NCBI GenBank assembly: GCA_963850905.1
Contig: CAWKMU010000003.1
Location: forward strand, 2,656,001-2,720,000
DNA: 64,000 nucleotides
From: an uncultured Gemmatimonadales bacterium
GTDB lineage: Bacteria; Gemmatimonadota; Gemmatimonadetes; Gemmatimonadales; Gemmatimonadaceae
Direction of reading: 5' to 3'
Made by a program: the position numbers and the translations under genes. The first letter of the stretch is position 1, and each line of letters opens with the position of its first letter. The notes under the pieces are model-generated. The model worked only from the letters and a program-made list of their open reading frames with translations. It was not told the DNA's origin and ran no database searches. Below, in pieces: positions 50,629-63,338 of the stretch.

Positions 50629-53600
50629 ATGCTGTCGCGGTGGAAACTCGCAGTGGCTCGCACTTCGGTCGTGCTGGGCCTGGTGTGCCTGTTCGCCGGA
50701 CTTGCGATAGCCCAGGTCAATCCCAACGAGTATGCCGGGCTCGTTTGGCGCAACATAGGCCCCTTCCGCGCCGGCCGCATCTCGGCTGTGAGCGCGCCCG
50801 TTGGACCCGGCCAGGCCGGCATCTTCTACGACGCCCTGCCGGAGGGCGGCGTGTGGAAGACCGAGAACGCCGGCATGACGTGGTTCCCGATCTTCGACGC
50901 CATCAAGACGGTGTCGTCGGTCGGTGCCATCGCGGTGGCGCCCGGCGACCCGAACATCATCTACGCCGGTACGGGCGACCTCGTCGGCGAGGGCGCCATC
51001 GACGAGGGTGACGGCGTGTACAAGTCGACCGACGCGGGCAAGACCTGGGTGCACCTCGGCCTCGAGGCCACCAAGCAGATCCCGGCGCTCATCGTGGATC
51101 CCAAAAATCCCAACATCGTACTGCTGGCGGCCCAAGGCGACGTTCATCACCCCAGCCTTGACCGCGGCATCTTCCGCTCCACCGACGGCGGGCAAACCTG
51201 GAAGCAGGTGCTCTTCCGTAGCGACATCGCCGGCGGGCAGGATGTCGAATTCGCGTATGACAATCCCAACGTCGTCTTCGCCACCACCGTACTGCACATG
51301 AGCGGTACGGGGGGCGGCGCCGGCGCGGGCAATAACGAGACCGCGCTCTACAAGTCCACCGACGAAGGCGCCACGTGGACAGAGGTGAAGGGCGGCGGCC
51401 TGCCCGAGCTGGCCGGGCGCACGAGTGTCGCTGTGGCGGCCAACACCAACTCGCAGCGGGTGTTCCTCGTCGGCGCTTTCGGGTTATGGCGCTCCGATGA
51501 CGGCGGCGCGAACTGGCGCCGTATGAGCACCGATCCTCGCATCAGGGGCAACGGTTATATCTGCGGCGTGATGGTCGACAGCAAGAATCCTGACGTCGTG
51601 TACATCATGAACACCTCGGTCTACCGCTCCACGGACGGCGGCGCCAACTTCGCCGGCTTCAAGGGCGCGCCCGGCGGCGACGATTACCACTTCATCTGGA
51701 TTGATCCGACCGACCCTAACCGTATGTCGCTTGCCAGCGATGAGGGTGCGACGGTCACCCTCGACGGCGGCAGGACCTGGAGCTCGTGGTACAACCAGCC
51801 CACCGCCCAGACATACCACATCGCGATCAATGACGAAATCGCCGGCCTTAACGACTTCATTTACTGGGTGTATGGCACGCAGCAGGATCCGTGCGCCGTC
51901 GCCGAGCGCAACCGCGGCGACTACGGTGAGACCACGCCCTGGGACTGGACGCCGTTCCCCATCTATGAAATCGGCTCCATCGCCCCCGACCCCGATAATC
52001 CCGAAATCGTTTACGGCGCGGGCGGCGATAACGGCATCCTGAAAGTCTGGCTCAAGAGCGGGCAATGGGAGAATTTTGCTCCCAATATCGGCACGACTCG
52101 AGGTGGCATCGGCTGGATTTCCGCAAGAGTATCGAGTTCCCCATGGTGTTCTCGCCGAGCATCACAAAACCCTCTACCTGGGCACGCAATATGTCACCGC
52201 TACATCGAGATGGCGGTGTGCATTGGCGCAACCTGGGTGACAAGGATCTCGCCACCCGCACCCTGACGCCGGAAGAAGCGGCGGCCGTGGCAGCCGCAGG
52301 CCGTTTCGCCATCGGAGGGCATGGCGCCATTTCCTCGATCGCTCCCTCCACGGTAACCGGCAAAGTGATCTGGACAGGCAGCAATAACGGCCTGATCTAC
52401 GTCACGCAGGACGGCGGCACCACCTGGAAAGAGACCGATCTCAAACTGCCCTACAATGCGAACGTCGTCATCATGGACGCTTCGCATTCCGATCCCGCCG
52501 AAGCGTATGCCGGGGTCGATCTCCACGCCGCCGGCACCTATACCCCCTACATCTACCGCACGCGCGATTACGGCGCCCATTGGGATCTCATCACCAACGG
52601 ACTGCCGACGAACGAACCCGCGGGCAGCTTTGTGCGGGTGGTTCGCGAGGACATTGTGAAAAAAGGCCTGCTCTTTGCCGGTACCGAGAGCTCGGTCTAC
52701 GTCTCGTTCAATGACGGCGATCACTGGCAGTCGCTGAAGCTCAATCTGCCAGTCGTTTCCTACCGCGACCTGATCGTGCATGGAAAGGATCTGGTGGCCG
52801 GCACCTTCGGCCGTTCCTTTTGGGTTCTCGACGACATCTCGCCGCTGCGGCAGATCGCGGCCGATCTGCCTTCGAAGACGGCATATCTCTTCAAGCCCAC
52901 CGACACCTATCGCATCCGTAAGGATGTGAACCGCAACACGCCGCTGCCGCCGGAGATCCCGCACGGTCTCAATCCCCCCGACGGCGCGATCCTTTATTAC
53001 TACCTCGCGTCGAAGCCTTCCGGCGAAATCAAGATCGAGATATTCGATTCCGCCAACAACCTGATTCGCTCCTACAGCAGCGCGCCCATCCCGCCGGTGA
53101 CGATCAACCCGCTCCCCAACGTCCCGGACTACTGGTTCTACCGGCCCGAACCGATCCCCACGGAGGTCGGCACCAACCGCATCAACTGGGATCTGCACTA
53201 TACGCGGCCGCCATCGCTCATCCAGAATTACTCGCTGGAGAAATTCGACGCCATCTACCACAACACCGTCTACGACCCGCAGGGGCCGCTCGTGGTTCCC
53301 GGCACCTACACGGTGAAGCTCACCGCCAACGGCACCACCTCAATGCAGACCGTCAGGGTGAAGATGGATCCGCGCGTCGAGGGCCAGGCGACGCAGGCCG
53401 ATCTCGTGGCCATGCACGACCTGTTGATGAAGGTGTACAGGTCCATGTTCACTACCTGGGATGGGTACCAGCAGGTGCGTGACATGCGCGCGCAGCTCAA
53501 AACCATCACCGACGGCCAGCTTCCGCCCCAGGTGGCGAACGCGGCGAGCGAGTTCGACGCCAAGATGGCGGGGATCGAAGGCGAGCTTCCTGCCGCCCAG

Positions 53601-53967
53601 GGCGGGGCGCCAGCGGCCGGGGCCGGACAAGGAGGTCGCGGCGCGACGCCGCAGATCGGCTTCGGCGCTCTGAATATCCAGTTCGGCGGTGACGGTCAGA
53701 CCGGCTACATCAACGCCTTCGGCACGGCCGACGTCGCGCCCACGCCCGCGGAGCGGCGCGCGTATCAGATCAGCTGCACGCATCTGAACAGCGCGATCGC
53801 TGCCTGGACGGCCATCAACAATCAGGATGTCAGCGCCTTCAACACCCTGCTCCGGCAGAACAAACTTTCGCCGCTTCCAGATGCCCACCAAGGCGTTGGC
53901 CACCACCGAGTGCGGCCCGCCGGTGGGCATCGCCCCGCCGGGCACGCCCGCGCTCGCCGCGCGGTAA
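50629..53967 (+). CDS. Secreted BNR/Asp-box (VPS10/sortilin-like) beta-propeller protein (frameshifts near 52.1-52.2 and 53.9 kb)
   Basis: WRNIGPFRAGR, repeated S.DGG.TW Asp-boxes, GTFGRSFWVLD, GPLVVPGTYTV. Confidence 0.85.
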
Positions 53968-54001
53968 GTAGCCGTCAGGCGAGCGGGTTTCGAGTTTTCA
54001 C

Positions 54002-54030
54002 GGGGCGGCCCAAGGGCCGCCCCTTCTTTT
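54002..54030. terminator. Intrinsic terminator between convergent genes
   Basis: GGGGCGGCCC-AA-GGGCCGCCCC-TTCTTTT. Confidence 0.75.
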
Positions 54031-54075
54031 GACTGGCGCGAGTCCGCCTCGCGTGTGCGCCGGCCACCGGCGTCA

Positions 54076-55170
54076 TCACCGCAAGCTCACCTCTTGGTAC
54101 ACGAGGCCAAGCAGCGCCGCCGCCTCATTGTCAAATTCCGCCGCGATTTCCTTGTCGTTTCCGGCAAATCGTTGCCGGAACGGCGTGAGATCCACGCTCC
54201 CCTTGACCTCGTCGAAGCTGCTGAACTTGCCGTGGCCGGATTTCCCCAGCGCGTCGTTCATTTGATCCACCGCGCTTTTCAGGAGATCCCTGGTCAGGTA
54301 AATGTGCGCCTTGTCGTGCAGGACCGGTCCGTGCCCCGGCACGATCGCGGTCGCATCCAGCTGAGCGAGATTCTCGAGCGTGTGGATCCACTCGCTCGGA
54401 TAGCCGTCGAACATGTACGTCAGCGGATACCCAACGAGATCGCCCGCCATCACAATGCGTTCCTTGGGGAGATAGGCCACAGCGTCACCCGCCGTGTTGC
54501 CTCGTCCCAGGAACTTGACCTGAACCTCTCGATTGCCCAAGTCAATGCTGAAGTCGTGATCGAACGCGAGCGTGGCACTCTGGAACCGCGTCTTCGCGAT
54601 CTCCTCCATGACCGGCGCGCGCCGCGCGAGATAATCCCTGATCCTCGCCTTACGGTCGTCCGTCAACGCCGTGCCGTTACCGTCCTTTCCGCTGTCCAGC
54701 GCCTGTTGATTCTCGATGTTGCTCTGTTTCTCCCGCAACTCCGTCGTCGGCCCATAGCGGTCCATATCTTTCTTCGCTTCCACCGTGGCGATGAAGGTCA
54801 CCGCGGGGAAGGCATCCACGTAGGCGCGGTTCGCGAAGTTGTGGTCATTGTGGAAGTGCGTCGTCAGCACAAAGGTGACCGGCTTGTCCGTCCACTGGCG
54901 GATTTGGGCGATGTCTTCGCGGGCAACCGAGGGCATGAATCCGGCATCGACCACGAAGACCTGCCGATCGCCGATGATCACCGTCGTGTTACTGCTCTGG
55001 ACGCCAAGGCGCAGATTCTTGTGCTCGATCTCATAGACGCCGTCGGCGAGCTTTGTCACTTTCCGCTCCGCCTGGCCGCACAGCGGCCGCGCCGCCGCGC
55101 TGAGTCCGAGCGTCACCAGGCACAGGTACGGCCGGAGGGAATTGCCGAGCGAACTGCTGCGAAACGTCAT
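54076..55170 (-). CDS. Secreted metallo-beta-lactamase-fold hydrolase
   Basis: Signal peptide, THFHNDH, MAGD, PGHG. Confidence 0.85.
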   Translation of the reverse strand: MTFRSSSLGNSLRPYLCLVTLGLSAAARPLCGQAERKVTKLADGVYEIEHKNLRLGVQSSNTTVIIGDRQVFVVDAGFMPSVAREDIAQIRQWTDKPVTFVLTTHFHNDHNFANRAYVDAFPAVTFIATVEAKKDMDRYGPTTELREKQSNIENQQALDSGKDGNGTALTDDRKARIRDYLARRAPVMEEIAKTRFQSATLAFDHDFSIDLGNREVQVKFLGRGNTAGDAVAYLPKERIVMAGDLVGYPLTYMFDGYPSEWIHTLENLAQLDATAIVPGHGPVLHDKAHIYLTRDLLKSAVDQMNDALGKSGHGKFSSFDEVKGSVDLTPFRQRFAGNDKEIAAEFDNEAAALLGLVYQEVSLR

Positions 55171-55233
55171 TGGGAGATCTCCGGGAGCGAACGGATGGGT
55201 GGCGCAAATGCGCCAAGATCGCTTCGTCCCGCC

Positions 55234-56148
55234 TCAGAAATCTTGGAGATTCCGGCCATCCAGTGTGAGGTCCGGCGTCGAGGCTGCCGTGGGCTGGGCG
55301 CGGCGCTCGCGATACGCCTGTGTCGGCGTTATCCCGCACAGGTCCTGAAGGTCCCGGGCCAGGTGCGCCTGGTCGCAATACCCGGCTTCAGTGGCAAGGC
55401 GCGGCCAGCATGGACGCTGGCCGCGCGGGGTCCGGTCCGCAGCCGTGACCGCTTGGAGCAGTCGCACGGTCCGGCTAAACGCTTTGAGCGAGACCCCGGC
55501 GTCCCGGCGGACAAGGCGTCGCAGATGCCGGATCGACAAGCCCGTCCAGTCGGCCACGCCATCGAGGGAAAGCCGCCCGCATGTCCGGCGGATCAGGTCC
55601 AGCGCTCGCGTGGCGGTCTCAGGGCGGGGCACGGGCTGACGCTGGGCCCGGCGCACGACCGCCGTGGTCAGGACGGCGAGAGCCTCAGGCGCCGTGAGCG
55701 TCTCGGTCAGTGGCCCGAACACCGACTCCGCAAACCGGGGAAGGACGAGTGACAGGTCATCGCCGAAGTCATCGTGCGCGTCCGGCTCCAATCCGAACAG
55801 CGGCCGGACCCACTCGCGCTTGACCATGACCGCCGCCACTTCGTATCCGGGCCGCAGCGCGAAGAAGTGCGGGGTCACCACGGGACCCAGGAACAGAAGG
55901 CGCGGGCTCACCGGCCGCCCCCCGGGCTCACGGTAGCAGTTAAACGTCAGCCCGAACGCCGGGTCAGGTAATACACGGTGCATCGCGGCGCCAGTCAGCG
56001 GGACCCCAGCCGGCGTGTGGTGGATCCAAACCGCGTCGCTCACGGGCGCGAGCAACGGCGGCGCGACGTACTCCCGATAGCCGCCAACCATGTGCCGCAC
56101 CGGCAGGGATATCGCGCCCGGCTCAGCCGCCATTAACGAGCCCCGCAT
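55234..56148 (-). CDS. AraC-family transcriptional regulator
   Basis: YRE...VLPD N-terminal domain; GLSIRHLRR and AGYCDQAHLARD HTH motifs. Confidence 0.88.
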   Translation of the reverse strand: MRGSLMAAEPGAISLPVRHMVGGYREYVAPPLLAPVSDAVWIHHTPAGVPLTGAAMHRVLPDPAFGLTFNCYREPGGRPVSPRLLFLGPVVTPHFFALRPGYEVAAVMVKREWVRPLFGLEPDAHDDFGDDLSLVLPRFAESVFGPLTETLTAPEALAVLTTAVVRRAQRQPVPRPETATRALDLIRRTCGRLSLDGVADWTGLSIRHLRRLVRRDAGVSLKAFSRTVRLLQAVTAADRTPRGQRPCWPRLATEAGYCDQAHLARDLQDLCGITPTQAYRERRAQPTAASTPDLTLDGRNLQDF

Positions 56149-56254: not shown

Positions 56255-56770
56255 TCAGCGCGGCTGCTCGAACCTCCCCGCCCTCCGCAAATACGGCACG
56301 AGGCCACCCGCCGACAGTATCCTCGCCGCAATCCCCGACGGTATCGTTCCTGATACCGCCGCCGCCGTCGTCTCATCCCGCACGATGACCCGCCTCCCGC
56401 TGGTCTCAACCGATATCGCGTCGCCTTCGCCAATCCCGCTGGTGTCGCACTCAATCGGCAACAACCCATTGTTGACCGCATTCCGATAAAACGTCCGTGA
56501 AAAGCTCTGCGCGATCACCGCTCTGATCCCCGCAGCCAGAATGACGGTCGCCGCGACCTCCATCGCCGATCCACACCCGAAGTTGCGCCCCGCCACGAGC
56601 ACGTCACCAGGCTGCACAGAGCTCGCGAATCCAGGATCGACAGTCTCCAACAAATACCGCTTGAGCACTTGCTCGTCGATGGTCTCCTTCTTCCGCGTTG
56701 ACGAGATGATGTAATCCGTATTCACATCATCGCCCAAGCGCCGCGCGCGGCCGGCTAGCAGAATGCTCAT
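56255..56770 (-). CDS. LeuD-like (aconitase swivel) small subunit
   Basis: DDVNTDYII, GRNFGCGSAME, SFSRTFYRNAVNNG, ILSAGGL. Confidence 0.88.
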   Translation of the reverse strand: MSILLAGRARRLGDDVNTDYIISSTRKKETIDEQVLKRYLLETVDPGFASSVQPGDVLVAGRNFGCGSAMEVAATVILAAGIRAVIAQSFSRTFYRNAVNNGLLPIECDTSGIGEGDAISVETSGRRVIVRDETTAAAVSGTIPSGIAARILSAGGLVPYLRRAGRFEQPR

Positions 56771-58029
56771 ACGCCGATCGACGACGGATCCGTGATGACC
56801 CCAGTCACCGCCGCCGCCCCGCACGCCGCCGGCGACGCGAGGTAGATCCGCGCGGTCGCAGTGCCCATCCGTGCCTTGAAGTTGCGATTTGCCGTCGACA
56901 GCACGTTCGCTCCGTCGGGCGGAATCACACCGCTCGTGCCGCAGCAGGCGCCGCAACCGGGTGCAGTGATCGTCGCGCCGATCGCCCGGAACTTCGCGTA
57001 GCTGCCATCGGCGACCAGGTGCTGCTCGACGTCGCCCGACGCCGGCGTCAGGACGAGCTGTACGCCCGGCGCAAGCTTCCCGCCGCCGCGCTCGATCACG
57101 GCGAGCGCCTCGTGAAAATCGCGCACGCGACCGCCCGTGCAGGTGCCGAGGAATACCATATGAATGCGCGTGCCGCCGGCGTCGGCGATCGGCACCACGT
57201 TCGCCGGCGAATGCGGCAGCGCGATCACCGGCGCATGCTCGGCCAGATTGATCTCGAGTACGCGCGCGTAGCGGGCATTCGCGTCGGCGACCACCGGCGC
57301 ATACTCCACGATTTGCCGCGACCGCAGAAACTCGGCCAGCACATCGTCTGCGGGGAACATCGCGGCCTTGGCCCCGCTCTCGACCAGCAGATTGCTCAGC
57401 ACGAGGCGATCATCGAGCGGGAGCTCGGCGACTTGGCCGTCGAACTCCACCGCCTGGTAGTTCGCGCCGTCCGCGCCGAGCCGGGCGACGATCGCGAGCG
57501 CGAGATCCTTCGCCGTGAGATCGCGCGGGCGCTCGCCGCGGAGTACGATGCGAATCGTGTCCGGGACGCGAAGCCAGATCTGTCCGGTGATCAGCGCGGC
57601 CGCGAGGTCGGATGAGCCAATGCCCGTTGCGAACAGATTCAGCGCGCCGCACGTCACGGTGTGACTGTCGGCGCCCAGCACGAGCTGACCCGGTCGCACT
57701 TCACCGCGCTCGATCGCGAGCTGATGACTGATGCCCTCGCCGCGCTCGTAGATGCGCAGCGCGTGCTGCGCTGCGAACGTGTGCACGAGGTCGTGATACT
57801 TCGCGGTGCCGGGGCTCGTCGTCGGATCGTAGTGATCGAGCGCGAACACCACGCGGTCCGGCCGCCGCACATGCGTGCCGCCCATCTTTGCGAAGTACGC
57901 AATCGCCATCGGCGCCGAGGCGTCGGTGCCGATGATCAGATCGGCGTCACAGACGACCGTGTCGCCGGCGCGGCCATCGGAGCCGGACTTGGCCGAGAGG
58001 ATCTGCTCGGCGATCGTCTTGCCGTTCAC
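56767..58029 (-). CDS. LeuC/homoaconitase-like [4Fe-4S] large subunit
   Basis: GISHQ, GADSHT, GTCTGGR, CGACCG, STANRNFKARMG, LASP. Confidence 0.9.
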   Translation of the reverse strand: MNGKTIAEQILSAKSGSDGRAGDTVVCDADLIIGTDASAPMAIAYFAKMGGTHVRRPDRVVFALDHYDPTTSPGTAKYHDLVHTFAAQHALRIYERGEGISHQLAIERGEVRPGQLVLGADSHTVTCGALNLFATGIGSSDLAAALITGQIWLRVPDTIRIVLRGERPRDLTAKDLALAIVARLGADGANYQAVEFDGQVAELPLDDRLVLSNLLVESGAKAAMFPADDVLAEFLRSRQIVEYAPVVADANARYARVLEINLAEHAPVIALPHSPANVVPIADAGGTRIHMVFLGTCTGGRVRDFHEALAVIERGGGKLAPGVQLVLTPASGDVEQHLVADGSYAKFRAIGATITAPGCGACCGTSGVIPPDGANVLSTANRNFKARMGTATARIYLASPAACGAAAVTGVITDPSSIGV

Positions 58030-59279
58030 GGCGCCGGCTCTGGCGCAGGGCGGGGCGATGCGACGCCTACAGCGACGGTGCCACGTGCGACCCACGCCGC
58101 GCCGACCAGATTGCCGATCGTATTCACCGCGGTGCGGCACATGTCGAGCGGGCGATCGATCGCCGCGACGAGCGCGATGCCCGCGGCCGCCTGCGCCTGG
58201 AGACCCACGGCGTTGAGCACGATGAGCGTCGTCACGAGCGAGCTGCCTGGCACGCCCGCACCCGCAAACGCAGCGGCCGTCGACGCGGCGACAATCGCGA
58301 TCGACTGTGTGGGGCCAAGCGCCAACCCGTAGATCGTCGCGAGAAATACCGCCGTCACCGCCTTGTAGACGGCGGCGCCATTCTTGTCGATCGTCGCGCC
58401 GGCCGGCAACACGAATGCCGCGACGTCGGGCGGCACGCCAAGCCGATGCGTCGCCGCCGCCATGCTGACGGGCAGCGCCACGCTCGACGACGCGGTGGCG
58501 AAGGCGAGCATCACCGCATCGGCGATGCCGCGCGCGAATGACGCGAGACCGACCCCGGCCCCGAAGCGCAGCACGGGCGCGAGCACGACCGCGACGTGAA
58601 TCGCCAGCGCGGCGATCACTGCGACGACGAACATCGCGAGGTTCGCGAGCATCGCCGCGCCAGACTTGGCGACCGTCGCCGCGATCAACACCGCGACCGC
58701 ATACGGCGCGAGCTGCATGAACCAGCCGATGATGATCATCGACAGATCGTTGAGGCGCGCGAATGCCTCGACGACGGGCTGGCGCTTGTCGCCGGGCAAG
58801 GTCGTCGCAGCGGTGGCGAAGATGCACACGGCCACGATCAACGGCAGCAGATCACCCTGCGCCGCCGCCGCGAACGGATTCTGCGGAATGATGGCGAGCA
58901 GCGCTTCCAGCAGTCTCGGCGTCGCGCTGGTTGGCGTGACGTGGCCGGCCGCCAGGGTCGGCACGAGGCCGAACGGCATCGCGCGCGCGACGCAGAGACC
59001 GACGATCGCTGCGGCGAGCGTGGTAGCAAGGAAGTACGCGAGGGTACGCCCGCCGATGCGGCCGAGCCGGCGCGGGTCGCCGAGCGATGCGATGCCGGTG
59101 AACAGGCTACCGATCACGAGCGGTACAACGACCATCGTGATCAATCGAATGAACGCGGTGCCGAGCGGCTCGAGGGCGATCAAGCCGTCGCGCAGCGGCA
59201 TGGCGAACGGAGCCTTCGAGATGGCGCCGAGCGCGGCGCCCACGAGCAAGCCGGCGAAGATGCGTGTCTCGAGCTTCAT
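58026..59279 (-). CDS. Dicarboxylate/amino acid:cation symporter (DAACS)
   Basis: FIRLITMVVVPL, AFATASSSVALP, AGVPG, DRPLDMCRTAVN. Confidence 0.92.
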   Translation of the reverse strand: MKLETRIFAGLLVGAALGAISKAPFAMPLRDGLIALEPLGTAFIRLITMVVVPLVIGSLFTGIASLGDPRRLGRIGGRTLAYFLATTLAAAIVGLCVARAMPFGLVPTLAAGHVTPTSATPRLLEALLAIIPQNPFAAAAQGDLLPLIVAVCIFATAATTLPGDKRQPVVEAFARLNDLSMIIIGWFMQLAPYAVAVLIAATVAKSGAAMLANLAMFVVAVIAALAIHVAVVLAPVLRFGAGVGLASFARGIADAVMLAFATASSSVALPVSMAAATHRLGVPPDVAAFVLPAGATIDKNGAAVYKAVTAVFLATIYGLALGPTQSIAIVAASTAAAFAGAGVPGSSLVTTLIVLNAVGLQAQAAAGIALVAAIDRPLDMCRTAVNTIGNLVGAAWVARGTVAVGVASPRPAPEPAP

Positions 59280-60379
59280 GTGACGCGTGCCGCCTGCGCC
59301 GACAGCACGTCGGCCAACGCCACGACCGTGCGCTCGACGTCGCTCATGCGGATGTCGCCCATGTGGCCGATGCGAAAGCCCGTCGCCTGATACGGCCCGA
59401 GCCCCGCCGCGGTGAGAATGCCGCGCGACGTGAGGGCGCCACGAACGTCCGCGGGCGCTACGCCGGTCGGCAGTGAGAGCGCGGTCAGTGTCGATGCACG
59501 GTCTGAGAGGGCAGGACATTGCAACGACATCCCCAGCCCTCCCGCCGCCGCACGCGTCCGCTCGGCCATCTCGCGATGGCGGGTGAGCACGTTGTCGAGG
59601 CCTTCCTCGTGAATCATCCGCAGCGCTTCGGCGACCTGCAGCACGAGGTGCACGGGTGTCGTGCCCGGGGTCTCAGGCTTGGCTTTGGAGGTCTCTGACC
59701 GAATCGCCGAAAAGCTCCAGTAGTTCCGCGGGAGGCGGGCAGCCTCGGAGGCGCGCCACGCGCGTTCGCTCAGTGCCACGAACGCGATCCCGGGGCTCGA
59801 CATCAGACACTTTTGCGATGCCGTGACGGCGACGTCGACGCCCCAGGCATCCAGCTCGAACGGCATCCCGCCGATCGACGAGACGCCGTCGATCATCGTC
59901 AGCACGCCGCGCGCGTTGGCAACGTGCGCCACCGCCGCGACATCGTTTGCCACGCCGGTCGACGAATCGGCGTACGTCATCGTGACCGCCTTCACCCTCG
60001 GATGCTCGGCTAGAAATGCATCGACTGCCGCGGGATTCACGCTCCGCTCCCAGTCCGTCTCGATCCAATGCGTGACCACACCATATGACTCGGCGAGGGC
60101 GGCCCACATCTCGCCGAACTTGCCGTTGCAGCACCCCGCGATTTCGTCACCGGCGGAGAAGAGATTGCAGATCGTCGCCTCGAGTGCGCCGCGGCCAGTC
60201 GTGTGAACCGGCAGAATCGGCTGCGTCGTGCCGAAGATCGGCGGCAAGAGCTCGAGCACCGTCGCCAACTCCTTCGCGAACTCGGGCGTCCGGTGATGGA
60301 GCATCGGCCGACCACCGGCGCGCAACACGCGTTCGGGCACGCGCGTTGGACCGGGCGTCAGCAACAGCAGCTCGCTCAC
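59276..60379 (-). CDS. Class-V PLP aminotransferase (serine-pyruvate/alanine-glyoxylate-like)
   Basis: LLTPGPT, DGVSSIGG, TASQKCL (PLP Lys), FRIGHMG. Confidence 0.92.
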   Translation of the reverse strand: MSELLLLTPGPTRVPERVLRAGGRPMLHHRTPEFAKELATVLELLPPIFGTTQPILPVHTTGRGALEATICNLFSAGDEIAGCCNGKFGEMWAALAESYGVVTHWIETDWERSVNPAAVDAFLAEHPRVKAVTMTYADSSTGVANDVAAVAHVANARGVLTMIDGVSSIGGMPFELDAWGVDVAVTASQKCLMSSPGIAFVALSERAWRASEAARLPRNYWSFSAIRSETSKAKPETPGTTPVHLVLQVAEALRMIHEEGLDNVLTRHREMAERTRAAAGGLGMSLQCPALSDRASTLTALSLPTGVAPADVRGALTSRGILTAAGLGPYQATGFRIGHMGDIRMSDVERTVVALADVLSAQAARVT

Positions 60380-61056
60380 TCGATCACGCCCTTCTTCCGC
60401 AACAGGTCATCGACGTCCGGACGAAACAGCGTACCCGCATTGATCTCGGCGATACGCTTGCGCTCGCGTTCCATCAGCTGTTGAACCAGAGTCAGCACAT
60501 CTTCGGCGTTGTCGCGTGGCACGACAACGACGCCGTCGCCATCGCCGACGATGATGTCGCCGGGCATCACCACCGTACCGCCGCACGCGATGGGGACGTT
60601 GACTTCGCCGGGGCCATCCTTGTCGCATCCGCCGGCGCAGACCGTGCGGCTGAATGCGGGGAAACCGAGCTTCCTGATGCCGTCCACGTCGCGGATCGCG
60701 CCGTCGACGACAATGCCGCCGAGCTTCGCCGCGGCCGCCGTGGTGCACATCAATTCGCCGAAGACGGCGCTCGTCGTGTTCCCGCAGGTGTTGACCACGA
60801 CCACGTCGCCCGACTGCGCCACCTGCATGGCCTTGTGGATCATGAGATTGTCGGCGGGACGCGCGCTGACGGTGACGGCGAGCCCGCACATCGAGAATCC
60901 GCTCCGCGAGCGAATGCCGGCGTCCATGAAGTTGAAGCGGCCCATCGCGTCGGCGAGGTTGGGCGAGGCGAGACCGCGAAAGCGATCGAGGAGGGTCGCG
61001 TCGACGCGCGGCGGAGCAGCGAGCACGCGAAAACCAAGTCTGCCGGATTGTGGCAT
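60376..61056 (-). CDS. RraA/HMG-aldolase family protein
   Basis: NLADAM, DNLMIH, FGELM, DGAIRD, PGDIIVGDGDGVV. Confidence 0.9.
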   Translation of the reverse strand: MPQSGRLGFRVLAAPPRVDATLLDRFRGLASPNLADAMGRFNFMDAGIRSRSGFSMCGLAVTVSARPADNLMIHKAMQVAQSGDVVVVNTCGNTTSAVFGELMCTTAAAAKLGGIVVDGAIRDVDGIRKLGFPAFSRTVCAGGCDKDGPGEVNVPIACGGTVVMPGDIIVGDGDGVVVVPRDNAEDVLTLVQQLMERERKRIAEINAGTLFRPDVDDLLRKKGVIE

Positions 61057-61260
61057 GGAGAGAGTTGCGTGGAGGAGAGTGCGCCTCAAAGAGGCACGCT
61101 GGCCGTGCCCCACGCAACTATCGCCCGCTGACCTCAGCTGAACCATTCACGCTGGGCCAAGGCCTGCCGCGGACGCCCGGCGACAGGAAGACGGTCTCAG
61201 CTTCACCCCTCGCCCCTGCCGCACCGGCCTCGGGCGTTCAGAGTGCGCCGGTAGGGGTCC
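61057..61260 (-). promoter_or_regulatory. Candidate structured 5' leader of the RraA operon
   Basis: Several nested inverted repeats; no match to the riboswitch consensus sequences I know. Confidence 0.35.
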
Positions 61261-61289: not shown

Positions 61290-63152
61290 TTATGGCATGA
61301 TCGGGAGCTGGACGCGAGACGGCATTTCGGCGGAGCTGTAGACTCGCTGCGTCGCCTTGACGTAGTCAGCCGCAGTCGCCTGGTAGATGCTCGGCACAAA
61401 CTTCTGCGGGTTGCGGTCGATGAGCGGAAACCAGGTCGACTGCACTTGTACCATCAGTCGATGCCCCTTGAGAAAGACGTGGTCACGATCCCGCAGCGGG
61501 ATGGTCCAATCCGTAGCCTGTCCCGGCACGAGGGCATGCGGCTGCTCGTAGCTCGTGAGGAAGCGACCGCGTCGCACTTCCATCGCAATCGGCAGCTCGT
61601 AACCGTTGAGGGAACGCGCGTACTGCCCGGGTGCCGGCCCCTCTTCCGCGTTCCACTTGTTGGCCTGGGCGCTTTCGGGATATACGTCGATCAGCTTGAC
61701 GATGAAGTCCGCGTCCGTCCCCGAGGTCGACGCGAACAGATGGGCAGATACGGGGCCGCTAATCGTGACGTCGTGATCGAGTGGCACGCTCTCGTACGTC
61801 AGCACATCGGGGCGATGGTCGACGAATTGTTGATCTGACATCTCCCACGTCCGCCAATCTCCCCACGGGTACGTCGGTGAAATCGGGCGCCGCCGGTACG
61901 GCACCGGGTTGGCCGGATCGGACACGTATTCTCTGTAACCGCTCGTCGGTTTGGTAAACGACAGCGTTCCGTCCGCGTGCAAGTAGAGGCTCGTCTGGAC
62001 GGCCTCCTTGGGCGGCCACGCGGCGTACGTCCGCCATTTGTTCGAGCCCGACTGGAAGGTGGTCGCCTGCCACGCCGGCTTATCACCAACTCCATGGAGG
62101 TAGTAGCGGAAGAACGGCGCCTCGATCGTCTCGCGAAACTCGCGTGCCGTCTCGTGCCCACCGAATGAGACCAGGCCAATGCTGTCGCCCTTTGGCGACT
62201 GCCACTCCCCGTGATACCAAGGACCCACCACGATGAAATTGGTGTGATCGGGATCATGCTCCTCGGCGTGTTGGAAGACTTGCCACGGGCCCCAGGGATC
62301 TTCCTGATCCCAGAAGCCAGCAACGTTGAGATTCGGGACTGTGGAGGAGTGTAACTGGTCGACCCAAGCCTCCTTCTTCCAAAACGCGTCCCGGTTCGGG
62401 TGTTGCACCGTCTCGTTCCACTGGGGGATCGAGTCGTGGAGGTACTTGGTGTTGACGTTGCTCAGCGGACCGAGGTCGAGATACCACTGATAGGTGTCGT
62501 AGGTGTTGAAATTGAAGTGCCTGTTCTCGGTCTTGCTCGCCTGCTCCATGACGTCGTACTCGACGTTGTAGCTCTCTCGCAATGCGCCGAAGTGGTGCAT
62601 GTCGTCGTTCATGAACCAGTCGACCGGGGTGGCCTGCTCACTGATCGCTTTGAGCGCCGGGTGTGGCTGCAGCAGCGCCATTGCGGTCGTGAGGCCGTCG
62701 TATGAGACCCCGAACATCCCGACTTTGCCCGAGTTGTTGGGCACGTTCTTGATGAGCCAGTCAATGCTGTCGTACGCGTCGGTGGTCTCGCTGGTCGCCT
62801 TGGGGTCTTTGAGGTCTGCCTCAAAGGACTCCTTGAACACGCCCTCGGACTTGAAGCGCCCGCGCAGGTTCTGCACGACGAAGATGTACCCATCCTTTGC
62901 CAATTCCCTGAGGTTTTCGGGGACGCTGTCTGGCGCTTGGTAGGGGACACCGTACGGGGTGCGTCTGAACAGGATCGGGAGTGGCCCGCTCTGATTGACG
63001 GGCGTCAGGATCGCCGTTTCAAGGTGCACGCCGTCGCGAACTGGAATCATCACTTGGCGCAGCGTGAAAACCGGGTCGGGCTTGGCCGGAGACGAGCTGC
63101 CGGTGCAAGCTGCCAGGAGCACGGTGAAGCCGAGACAGGCTGTGTATCGCAT
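61290..63152 (-). CDS. CocE/NonD (alpha-amino-acid ester hydrolase-like) lipoprotein
   Basis: LAAC lipobox, RDGVHL, RTPYG, GVSYDG nucleophile, VQVQSTWFP. Confidence 0.92.
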   Translation of the reverse strand: MRYTACLGFTVLLAACTGSSSPAKPDPVFTLRQVMIPVRDGVHLETAILTPVNQSGPLPILFRRTPYGVPYQAPDSVPENLRELAKDGYIFVVQNLRGRFKSEGVFKESFEADLKDPKATSETTDAYDSIDWLIKNVPNNSGKVGMFGVSYDGLTTAMALLQPHPALKAISEQATPVDWFMNDDMHHFGALRESYNVEYDVMEQASKTENRHFNFNTYDTYQWYLDLGPLSNVNTKYLHDSIPQWNETVQHPNRDAFWKKEAWVDQLHSSTVPNLNVAGFWDQEDPWGPWQVFQHAEEHDPDHTNFIVVGPWYHGEWQSPKGDSIGLVSFGGHETAREFRETIEAPFFRYYLHGVGDKPAWQATTFQSGSNKWRTYAAWPPKEAVQTSLYLHADGTLSFTKPTSGYREYVSDPANPVPYRRRPISPTYPWGDWRTWEMSDQQFVDHRPDVLTYESVPLDHDVTISGPVSAHLFASTSGTDADFIVKLIDVYPESAQANKWNAEEGPAPGQYARSLNGYELPIAMEVRRGRFLTSYEQPHALVPGQATDWTIPLRDRDHVFLKGHRLMVQVQSTWFPLIDRNPQKFVPSIYQATAADYVKATQRVYSSAEMPSRVQLPIMP

Positions 63153-63338
63153 GGACAATCCGATGGGTGGAGGCCAGCTGGCGCTGGCGAAGGAGGTCTC
63201 TGCCGTCGCGGGAAATCATGGCACTCGCGAGGCGTTATCGGAATGGCTGCGATGCAATTTTATTGGATAGCTGGGATTGGCGGCCACTGGAACGGGTCAC
63301 GATTTCGCGCTCAAATCGGGCGATGACTCTTCATCCGC

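Follow-up and report, generated by a model that had tools for sequence, protein, structure and literature searches.

Hydratase pairs of the HacA/HacB and archaeal LeuC/LeuD types (MJ1003/MJ1271 and MJ0499/MJ1277) have a synthase and a dehydrogenase as partners, and AcnX, a [2Fe-2S] member of the aconitase superfamily with less than 10% identity to classical aconitases, is reported to act in the catabolism of modified amino acids (PMC8184944). The protocatechuate 4,5-cleavage, gallate and 5,5'-dehydrodivanillate (DDVA) pathways end in the LigK/GalC aldolases for 4-hydroxy-4-methyl-2-oxoglutarate and 4-carboxy-4-hydroxy-2-oxoadipate (HMG and CHA), and are described as proceeding by hydration and then retro-aldol cleavage to pyruvate (PMC5065237, PMC12673573). 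The beta-hydroxyaspartate cycle (BhcABCD) assimilates glyoxylate and, as outlined in its description, does so without an aconitase-family or RraA enzyme (PMC8307300). Here we compare with these systems a five-gene operon of an uncultured Gemmatimonadales bacterium, located at positions 56,255 to 61,056 of a 64,000-nucleotide stretch (the window) of contig CAWKMU010000003.1, assembly GCA_963850905.1. All of its parts come from known families and its logic is akin to known hydratase-aldolase routes, while its centre is apparently an undescribed branch of the aconitase family. Most likely, the cluster serves the uptake and breakdown of an unusual glutamate- or aspartate-like amino acid in many soil, sediment and gut bacteria. 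The original prediction regarded it as a candidate new pathway, and the searches run found no match to a characterised one.

The operon and its LeuC/LeuD-like pair

The operon consists of the following genes, in order of transcription:
61056-60376, minus strand, RraA-family protein (226 aa, PF03737)
60379-59276, minus strand, class V aminotransferase (367 aa, PF00266)
59279-58026, minus strand, DAACS symporter (417 aa, PF00375)
58029-56767, minus strand, LeuC-like large subunit (420 aa, PF00330)
56770-56255, minus strand, LeuD-like small subunit (171 aa, PF00694)

All five open reading frames (ORFs) are intact and in frame, every Pfam match exceeds its gathering score, and successive genes are linked by four 4-bp overlaps (GTGA, ATGA, GTGA and ATGA). 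The gene count, overlaps and family labels first proposed are borne out by the ORF coordinates, the overlap letters and Pfam, with the refinement that the pair belongs to the short HacA/HacB (archaeal-type) class. The arrangement is not due to chance, because four of the ten genus genomes share this 4.8 kb stretch with 92-100% identity in their DNA, alignment of three fetched congener loci to the window is confined to about 56.2-61.2 kb so that their flanks differ, and the gene set recurs across nine phyla, often in another order. The G+C content of the operon is not lower than that of its flanks, and relatives at the best-matching loci carry the label Gemmatimonadales.

Databases name the pair isopropylmalate dehydratase. 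Among NCBIfam models it exceeds the cut-offs of TIGR01343, TIGR02086 and TIGR02087, the last identifying the small subunit as HacB-type, and the HacA-type large subunit also exceeds that of NF001614; on the leuC equivalog TIGR00170 the large subunit reaches 163.8 against a cut-off of 560.25. The predicted fold of the small subunit (predicted local distance difference test score 92.9) resembles MJ1271 (2PKP) with a template-modelling score of 0.90. Large-subunit residues C297, C359, C362, D65-H66, D121-S122-H123, R382 and R387, placed by what we take to be their aconitase numbering, are kept in 172/172 LeuC sequences, both arginines of NRNFxxR, which bind carboxylate in aconitase, among them, and the catalytic Ser68 is kept in 186/186 small subunits. 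The three cluster cysteines and the catalytic His, Asp and Ser of the classical [4Fe-4S] type are thus all present.

What sets the pair apart is its substrate site. The small subunit reads GSAME where the isopropylmalate isomerase/homoaconitase type has GSSRE, an active-site motif that is highly conserved elsewhere, and S68/A69/M70 map onto S642/S643/R644 of mitochondrial aconitase (mapping checked). In loci found through LeuC alone, S-A-M occurs in 70 of 76 rows (query included), and the six S-S-R rows pair with LeuC proteins of 39-44% identity. When the clade (172 LeuC, 186 LeuD) was compared with 15-16 outgroup rows, Ser-Arg in the outgroup stood against Ala-Met in the clade, and T35, Y67, G299 and C363 of the large subunit were clade-specific. 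The recognition loop of the small subunit is basic, S-[TR]-R-K-[RK], with S24 and K27 in 186/186 and R26 in 185/186. A quick tree was built from 74 large subunits with a small outgroup (Shimodaira-Hasegawa-like approximate likelihood ratio, SH-aLRT, support only); the 59 that pair with GSAME small subunits fall together in a single group (SH-aLRT 97) that spans nine phylum labels.

The pair therefore shares with HacA/HacB and archaeal LeuC/LeuD the two-subunit build, the fold, the three cluster cysteines, the DH, DSH and NRNFxxR motifs and the catalytic serine. It differs from them in having GSAME and S[TR]RK[RK] in place of GSSRE and a PGPYLR or PARYLV loop, an extra cysteine past CxxC, an aldolase, an aminotransferase and a transporter as partners, and only about 40% identity. 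The likeness to AcnX lies in the superfamily, the serine base, the lack of an arginine two residues on and a place in modified-amino-acid catabolism, which for our pair is presumed; unlike AcnX as described, the pair keeps the classical cluster ligands and arginines (PMC8184944). Taken together, these residues suggest that the pair is active but that its substrate is not of the standard malate type. Loss of the arginine can be read as room for an ammonium group or as a lesser need to activate the base beside a more acidic, ketone-adjacent C-H. The second reading leans on the structural role that we presume for Arg644 in aconitase, to which the analogy with AcnX is added. Ser642 is reported to be the base in aconitase, and the AcnX residue two positions past it to bind the substrate nitrogen (PMC8184944).

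We consider it probable that proteins with GSAME make up a functional branch, so far undescribed, within the classical aconitase family, one that has moved away from malate-type diacid isomerisation. This branch would anchor a catabolic pathway, likewise unrecognised, through which soil, sediment, host-associated and gut bacteria from nine or more phyla use a modified acidic amino acid. Its reaction would be conjugate hydration of a 2-oxo-3-enoate, Fe-S deamination of 3-hydroxyaspartate or, on a glutamate skeleton, the shift of a hydroxyl from C3 to C4. We found no description of the operon or motif in the Creative-Commons literature of PubMed Central and bioRxiv, judged by titles and abstract openings, a search that leaves subscription papers and supplementary files outside. 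Among solved structures the five proteins have no close relatives, and the ESM Atlas returned only Aconitase_C clusters with automatic names. Such a branch would mean that a textbook Fe-S family has a new reaction, and the pathway points to a source of carbon and nitrogen, present in soils and guts, to whose breakdown by microbes no route seems to be assigned. The five-letter GSAME signature separates widespread proteins labelled isopropylmalate dehydratase from leucine synthesis, a distinction of importance when auxotrophy is predicted in Gemmatimonadota.

Spread of the operon and properties of its partners

A first search gave 104 large-subunit relatives among 153 pattern matches, of which the best 80 were used; LeuC identity was at least 53% in 73 of these, nearly all from Gemmatimonadota and Acidobacteriota. 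At that identity, RraA, class V aminotransferase and DAACS occur together in 35 of 49 non-redundant loci with adequate flanks, and RraA and DAACS without the aminotransferase in a further six. The module is patchy, its small subunit being present at 64% identity or more in 7/301 sampled genomes of the phylum. Two wider scans (best 80 of 398 relatives; at least 119 motif matches, with flanks fetched for 80) added, among the matches listed, Burkholderiaceae, Comamonadaceae, Bradyrhizobium, Pseudomonas, Acidobacteriota, clostridia, Bilophila, spirochaetes, Synergistales and NC10, with Paraburkholderia, Cupriavidus, Bradyrhizobium and Flintibacter as cultured carriers. The best match in a plasmid collection (55%) lies in an unannotated Cupriavidus record.

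The gene neighbourhood analysis that had been proposed was run on 236 loci, three of them without a scorable small subunit, which merged to 189 GSAME and 6 GSSRE non-redundant loci. Neighbours were counted within 7 kb at the 136 GSAME loci whose flanks reach 4.5 kb or more in both directions. This set is biased toward kin, and it is anchored on the LeuC/LeuD pair, which is present by design, as is GSAME in the loci from the motif scan. RraA is present in 116/136, an aminotransferase in 112/136 (class V at 77, class I at 35) and both in 102/136. A DAACS, GltI, GltS or TAXI transporter occurs in 89/136 (53, 23, 14 and 4, respectively), a TctC-type protein in 12, an L-threonine-aldolase-like gene in 11 and a PALP enzyme in 6, and the linked regulators are of LysR, IclR and GntR types. 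A LeuB-like dehydrogenase lies near 1/136 GSAME loci versus 5/6 GSSRE loci, while RraA is found in 0/6 of the latter. No further recurrent enzyme was found among annotated neighbours, which fits products that enter central metabolism directly.

The RraA protein (PF03737, E 5.8e-43) is a PRK06201-like class II pyruvate aldolase/oxaloacetate decarboxylase whose best solved relative is 3NOJ. It scores 224.5 bits on NF004850, an uncharacterised PRK06201 subfamily (just under the cut-off of 231), 171.4 against 179 on NF006731 and 146.1 against 304.5 on the ligK equivalog TIGR02798, which places it outside LigK. Equivalents of R40, N71, H75, R123, D124, K147 and E199 are kept, and D102 is replaced by Glu. 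Across 136 RraA homologues the important residues are retained in 133-136 (N71, R123 and K147 in 135 each), except D102, which is Glu in 114. The protein thus has the HMG/CHA aldolase residues, namely the metal/enolate G-x-x20-R-D motif and E199 together with N71 and K147. N71A and K147A are reported to reduce HMG cleavage more than 1000-fold, with R123 essential, and HMG/CHA aldolases also decarboxylate oxaloacetate (PMC5065237), because of which the kept residues do not separate the two main readings discussed below. Fold, residues and the sequence of hydration and retro-aldol cleavage link the proposed scheme to the LigK/GalC-ended pathways; unlike them, it has an aldolase below the ligK cut-off with Glu at D102, would be entered from an amino acid and would use an aconitase-type hydratase. 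No ring-cleavage, lactonase or tautomerase gene was seen among annotated neighbours.

The aminotransferase belongs to the serine/alanine-glyoxylate aminotransferase-like branch of class V, and these enzymes are also its nearest solved structures. The pyridoxal phosphate (PLP) lysine, Lys190, and Arg336 are present in 91/91 class V homologues and a clade-specific Arg63, within TGRG, in 54/91. Its nearest model is BhcA (NF045640), on which it scores 250.5 against a cut-off of 650; on NCBIfam models neither it nor the symporter attains any cut-off. Besides this resemblance, the operon is reminiscent of the beta-hydroxyaspartate cycle in its occasional BhcB-like PALP and IclR regulator, but all three are far below Bhc cut-offs and neither BhcC, BhcD nor a bhcBCD context was seen among annotated neighbours, so the operon does not match the cycle. 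The class I enzymes in the same slot are aspartate-transaminase-like (587-611 bits on PRK06107 against 617, for the two Burkholderiales proteins scored).

The transporters give clues to the ligand. The window DAACS is under the cut-offs for GltP and DctA and reads DKNGA in transmembrane segment 7 (TM7), where a GltP/GltPh-type protein would have NMDGT. It keeps D394, R397, T398 and N401, in a GltPh numbering and with roles as amino-group and carboxylate anchors that we assume. Among 63 linked DAACS proteins of several branches, equivalents of D394 and R397 are kept in 62 each and of N401 in all 63, whereas T314 has become Ala or Ser in 62 (Thr in one) and M311 has become Lys in 45. One linked GltS passes the glutamate-symporter cut-off (319 versus 310.75), and the TAXI binding protein matches solved structures at family level only. 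In the linked GltI paralogues, whose rows are mostly close kin, S72 is replaced by Ala (24) or Pro (1) and S90 by Gly or Ala in 25/25, while R24, R75, R97 and H164 are kept; two ordinary gltI genes in surveyed loci have Ser at both positions. S72A and S72P are reported to switch GltI from glutamate toward aspartate preference (PMC10942590, bioRxiv 10.1101/2023.05.04.537313). The changes at S72 show selection against plain glutamate and, with S90G, may indicate either a beta-substituted aspartate or a bulkier glutamate. Overall, the transporter pockets keep the amino-acid anchors and are opened near the side-chain carboxylate, which suggests a modified acidic amino acid as ligand. With cultured carriers, a soluble binding protein and a dedicated regulator, the ligand is open to direct screening.

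Proposed route and competing explanations

On balance, we lean toward a self-contained catabolic operon for a glutamate modified at C3 or C4. The DAACS symporter would import the amino acid, and the PLP enzyme would transaminate it to the 2-oxo acid, probably with pyruvate, glyoxylate or oxaloacetate from the last step as acceptor. The LeuC/LeuD heterodimer, with intact [4Fe-4S] and serine-base machinery and a rebuilt substrate site, would place a hydroxyl at C4, through hydration of a 2-oxo-3-enoate or through a dehydration-rehydration that shifts a 3-hydroxyl there, a step that may precede or follow transamination. RraA would then split the 4-hydroxy-2-oxo acid into pyruvate and a second oxo acid. 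A linear route that needs each enzyme accounts for the retention of both aldolase and aminotransferase in three quarters of loci, and recruitment of the aminotransferase from unrelated classes is what would be expected of a required step. The outline of uptake, transamination, hydration and retro-aldol cleavage in the original prediction stays the best reading, with any specific substrate putative. Of the example substrates given there, 4-methyleneglutamate stays a candidate; 4-hydroxy-4-methylglutamate, like 4-hydroxyglutamate, was rejected as sole substrate since it would need no hydratase and cannot explain the LeuC/LeuD pair.

Three substrates can be named, each of them on its own unlikely. 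3-Hydroxyglutamate, which occurs in some actinobacterial cell walls, peptides and fungi, would pass through 4-hydroxy-2-oxoglutarate to pyruvate and glyoxylate. A tricarboxylic 4-carboxymethyl(ene)glutamate would yield pyruvate and oxaloacetate through CHA. 4-Methyleneglutamate, reported as a plant metabolite (PMC7968037, PMC12958779), would give two pyruvate through 4-carboxy-2-hydroxypentadienoate, a tautomer of its keto acid, and HMG; the same sequence from 4-carboxy-2-hydroxypentadienoate by a hydratase to HMG and two pyruvate has been proposed in Sphingobium SYK-6, where the hydratase is listed as unidentified (PMC12673573).

Several observations weigh against a modified glutamate. The S72A/P changes in 25/25 GltI rows are those reported to favour aspartate (PMC10942590), and both carboxylate-binding arginines, kept in 172/172 LeuC, would suit a malate skeleton over a 2-oxo-3-enoate. 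The aminotransferase is dispensable, as five of five genomes with operons that lack it (one of them, G334, unpublished) hold no orthologue, the best matches being 30-35%. RraA is missing from 20/136 GSAME loci, although 36-48% paralogues lie elsewhere in 5/5 such genomes tested. The 4-methylene route needs a tautomerase unless that step is spontaneous, and none was seen among annotated neighbours. The PALP and L-threonine-aldolase-like neighbours (6/136 and 11/136) are not explained by an alkylidene substrate.

The S72 changes, the loss of the Arg644 equivalent and the neighbours resembling serine racemase or hydroxyaspartate lyase, none of them open to the original prediction, raise the main rival, which is serious though rather unlikely and has its steps in another order: an aspartate skeleton with a beta-hydroxyl, at its simplest 3-hydroxyaspartate (3-aminomalate), perhaps the L-erythro isomer by analogy with (2R,3S)-isopropylmalate. 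LeuC/LeuD would be an Fe-S dehydratase/ammonia-lyase that forms oxaloacetate and NH3, RraA an oxaloacetate decarboxylase, and the aminotransferase would link oxaloacetate with aspartate or remove glyoxylate, with the PALP and threonine-aldolase neighbours dealing with other stereoisomers. Such a substrate would suit the GltI changes at both S72 and S90 (PMC10942590, bioRxiv 10.1101/2023.05.04.537313), the intact malate-site residues and the oxaloacetate decarboxylation reported for HMG/CHA aldolases (PMC5065237). It would also suit the Met that replaces Arg, as AcnX, described as a dehydratase of a beta-hydroxy imino acid, binds substrate nitrogen via Thr72 at that position, two after the Ser (PMC8184944). 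Loss of the aminotransferase and loss of RraA each affect 15-18% of loci, and the former can be lost outright, which again agrees with it. On the threo-3-hydroxyaspartate ammonia-lyase model (cut-off 452), linked PALPs reach 265-394 bits; their nearest solved structures are serine racemases, and they have Arg where TdcB has Thr, but they are undiagnostic, with similar scores on threonine ammonia-lyase models, and the IclR match to BhcR is weak (78.7 versus 350). Moreover, aerobes need no dedicated oxaloacetate decarboxylase or aminotransferase, yet both are kept in 102/136 loci, and two of four core enzymes, one recruited from two classes, would be left as optional extras. A substituent that is an ammonium only would not account for the practically invariant basic loop (R26, K27). 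The GltS family is specific for ligands of glutamate length, and its presence at 14/136 loci suggests one here.

It is improbable that the four functions are used in some other order on a further acidic amino acid or a related acid, such as a 3,4-dihydroxyglutamate deaminated to 4-hydroxy-2-oxoglutarate (with glyoxylate cleared by the aminotransferase), an aminocitrate-type tricarboxylate or a phosphonate- or sulfonate-armed analogue. The structural closeness of the class V enzymes to serine/alanine-glyoxylate aminotransferases would agree with this, and the basic LeuD loop, the DAACS TM7 Lys and the TctC-type transporters point to an extra anionic group. The ABC system of the Bradyrhizobium-type operon is nearest to aminoethylphosphonate transporters. 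On the other side, enzymes for phosphonates, sulfonates or a glyoxylate cycle do not recur among annotated neighbours, the slot is taken at 35 loci by class I aspartate-transaminase-like enzymes, and we know of no abundant natural source of these compounds.

Operation in the synthetic direction, with pyruvate aldol condensation, dehydration and amination leading to a modified glutamate, is very unlikely. These reactions are all reversible in principle, and the source genome has a small non-ribosomal peptide synthetase cluster (locus L294 2404-8774, G000:C4) composed of a nitroreductase, a PALP, a homocitrate-synthase-like enzyme, an A-T-TE module and a phosphopantetheinyl transferase, whose homocitrate-synthase-like gene occurs in the same 4/10 genus genomes as the operon. 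However, these four are close kin, that gene was not found in 4/5 other Gemmatimonadota carriers (30-31% matches only in the fifth), and the operon's partners are uptake systems (symporters and periplasmic binding proteins) and LysR, IclR and GntR regulators.

A separate canonical leuCD had been expected elsewhere in the source genome, and this check failed: apart from an AcnA-type aconitase, the operon pair is the only LeuCD-like pair found in this 82% complete genome. This does not refute a role outside leucine synthesis, because neither ilvD nor a leuA above cut-off was found there either. The sole Iso_dh gene (best scored as isocitrate dehydrogenase, under all cut-offs shown) and the sole HMGL-like gene both lie elsewhere, in line with the earlier observation that leuA and leuB are not nearby. 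No leuA or LysX above cut-off was found in the ten genus genomes, ilvD was likewise not found in G004, and dapB is above cut-off in 1/10, so that the source genome and genus are likely amino-acid auxotrophs. Among near-complete Gemmatimonadota carriers, canonical leuC and ilvD are both missing in 4/5 and both present in the fifth, and a separate canonical leuC is present in 5/5 proteobacterial and acidobacterial carriers examined. That the pair is simply an isopropylmalate isomerase of leucine synthesis or a homoaconitase of alpha-aminoadipate lysine synthesis, despite the database names, the sole pair and the fold and family match, is hardly credible given the replaced GSSRE, the low leuC equivalog score, the LeuB-like contrast (1/136 versus 5/6), this carrier pattern and the absence of LysX co-occurring with homocitrate synthase, and was rejected. 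Along with the co-occurrence and the transporter residues, the leuC/ilvD pattern supports the earlier view of a catabolic unit for an acidic amino acid.

Leader region, flanks and individual loci

The operon leader (window 61050-61135, minus strand) forms one long hairpin that ends just before the RraA ATG (-40.5 kcal/mol, z -3.4), with no Shine-Dalgarno evident ahead of that ATG in this region. It is conserved in three congeners only and possibly exerts translational control. A riboswitch as pointer to the ligand was dropped, since Rfam had no match in the 501 bases upstream nor in 10 related loci, and no motif was shared among 50 upstream regions. A scan for sigma-70 promoters and terminators gave 0 sites.

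Some individual loci differ from the common arrangement. In L047 and L080 a cytochrome oxidase cluster or MacB-type permeases break up the operon, lying between its DAACS and LeuC genes. A DmpG-type 4-hydroxy-2-oxovalerate aldolase (above the NF006049 cut-off) follows the operon in L237 (6316-7335), on a Synergistales contig cut upstream. At two loci without RraA, L206 (9356-11005) and L203 (7913-9956), ThDP-dependent 2-oxo-acid enzymes adjoin the pair, hinting that its product is a 2-oxo acid. In Oceanispirochaeta (L178 8781-13059), a second, distant LeuC/LeuD pair with a LarA malate-racemase-like gene and a TctC is divergent from the GSAME operon, and L241 has two LeuC/LeuD pairs in tandem. 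A link to histidine utilisation was rejected: hutU/hutI lie upstream in several Bryobacteraceae loci, but two small unrelated ORFs intervene and the genes are absent in other lineages, so their position was judged incidental.

In the window, the operon is flanked (54076-56148 and 61290-63158) by an AraC-type regulator, a metallo-beta-lactamase-fold hydrolase that scores far under all beta-lactamase cut-offs and a CocE/NonD hydrolase. These are probably unrelated to the operon, because congeners lack them at the locus. Further out on the plus strand, a BNR/VPS10-repeat protein seems to be split over two overlapping ORFs (50629-52266 and 52065-54032), probably by a frameshift or an assembly error.

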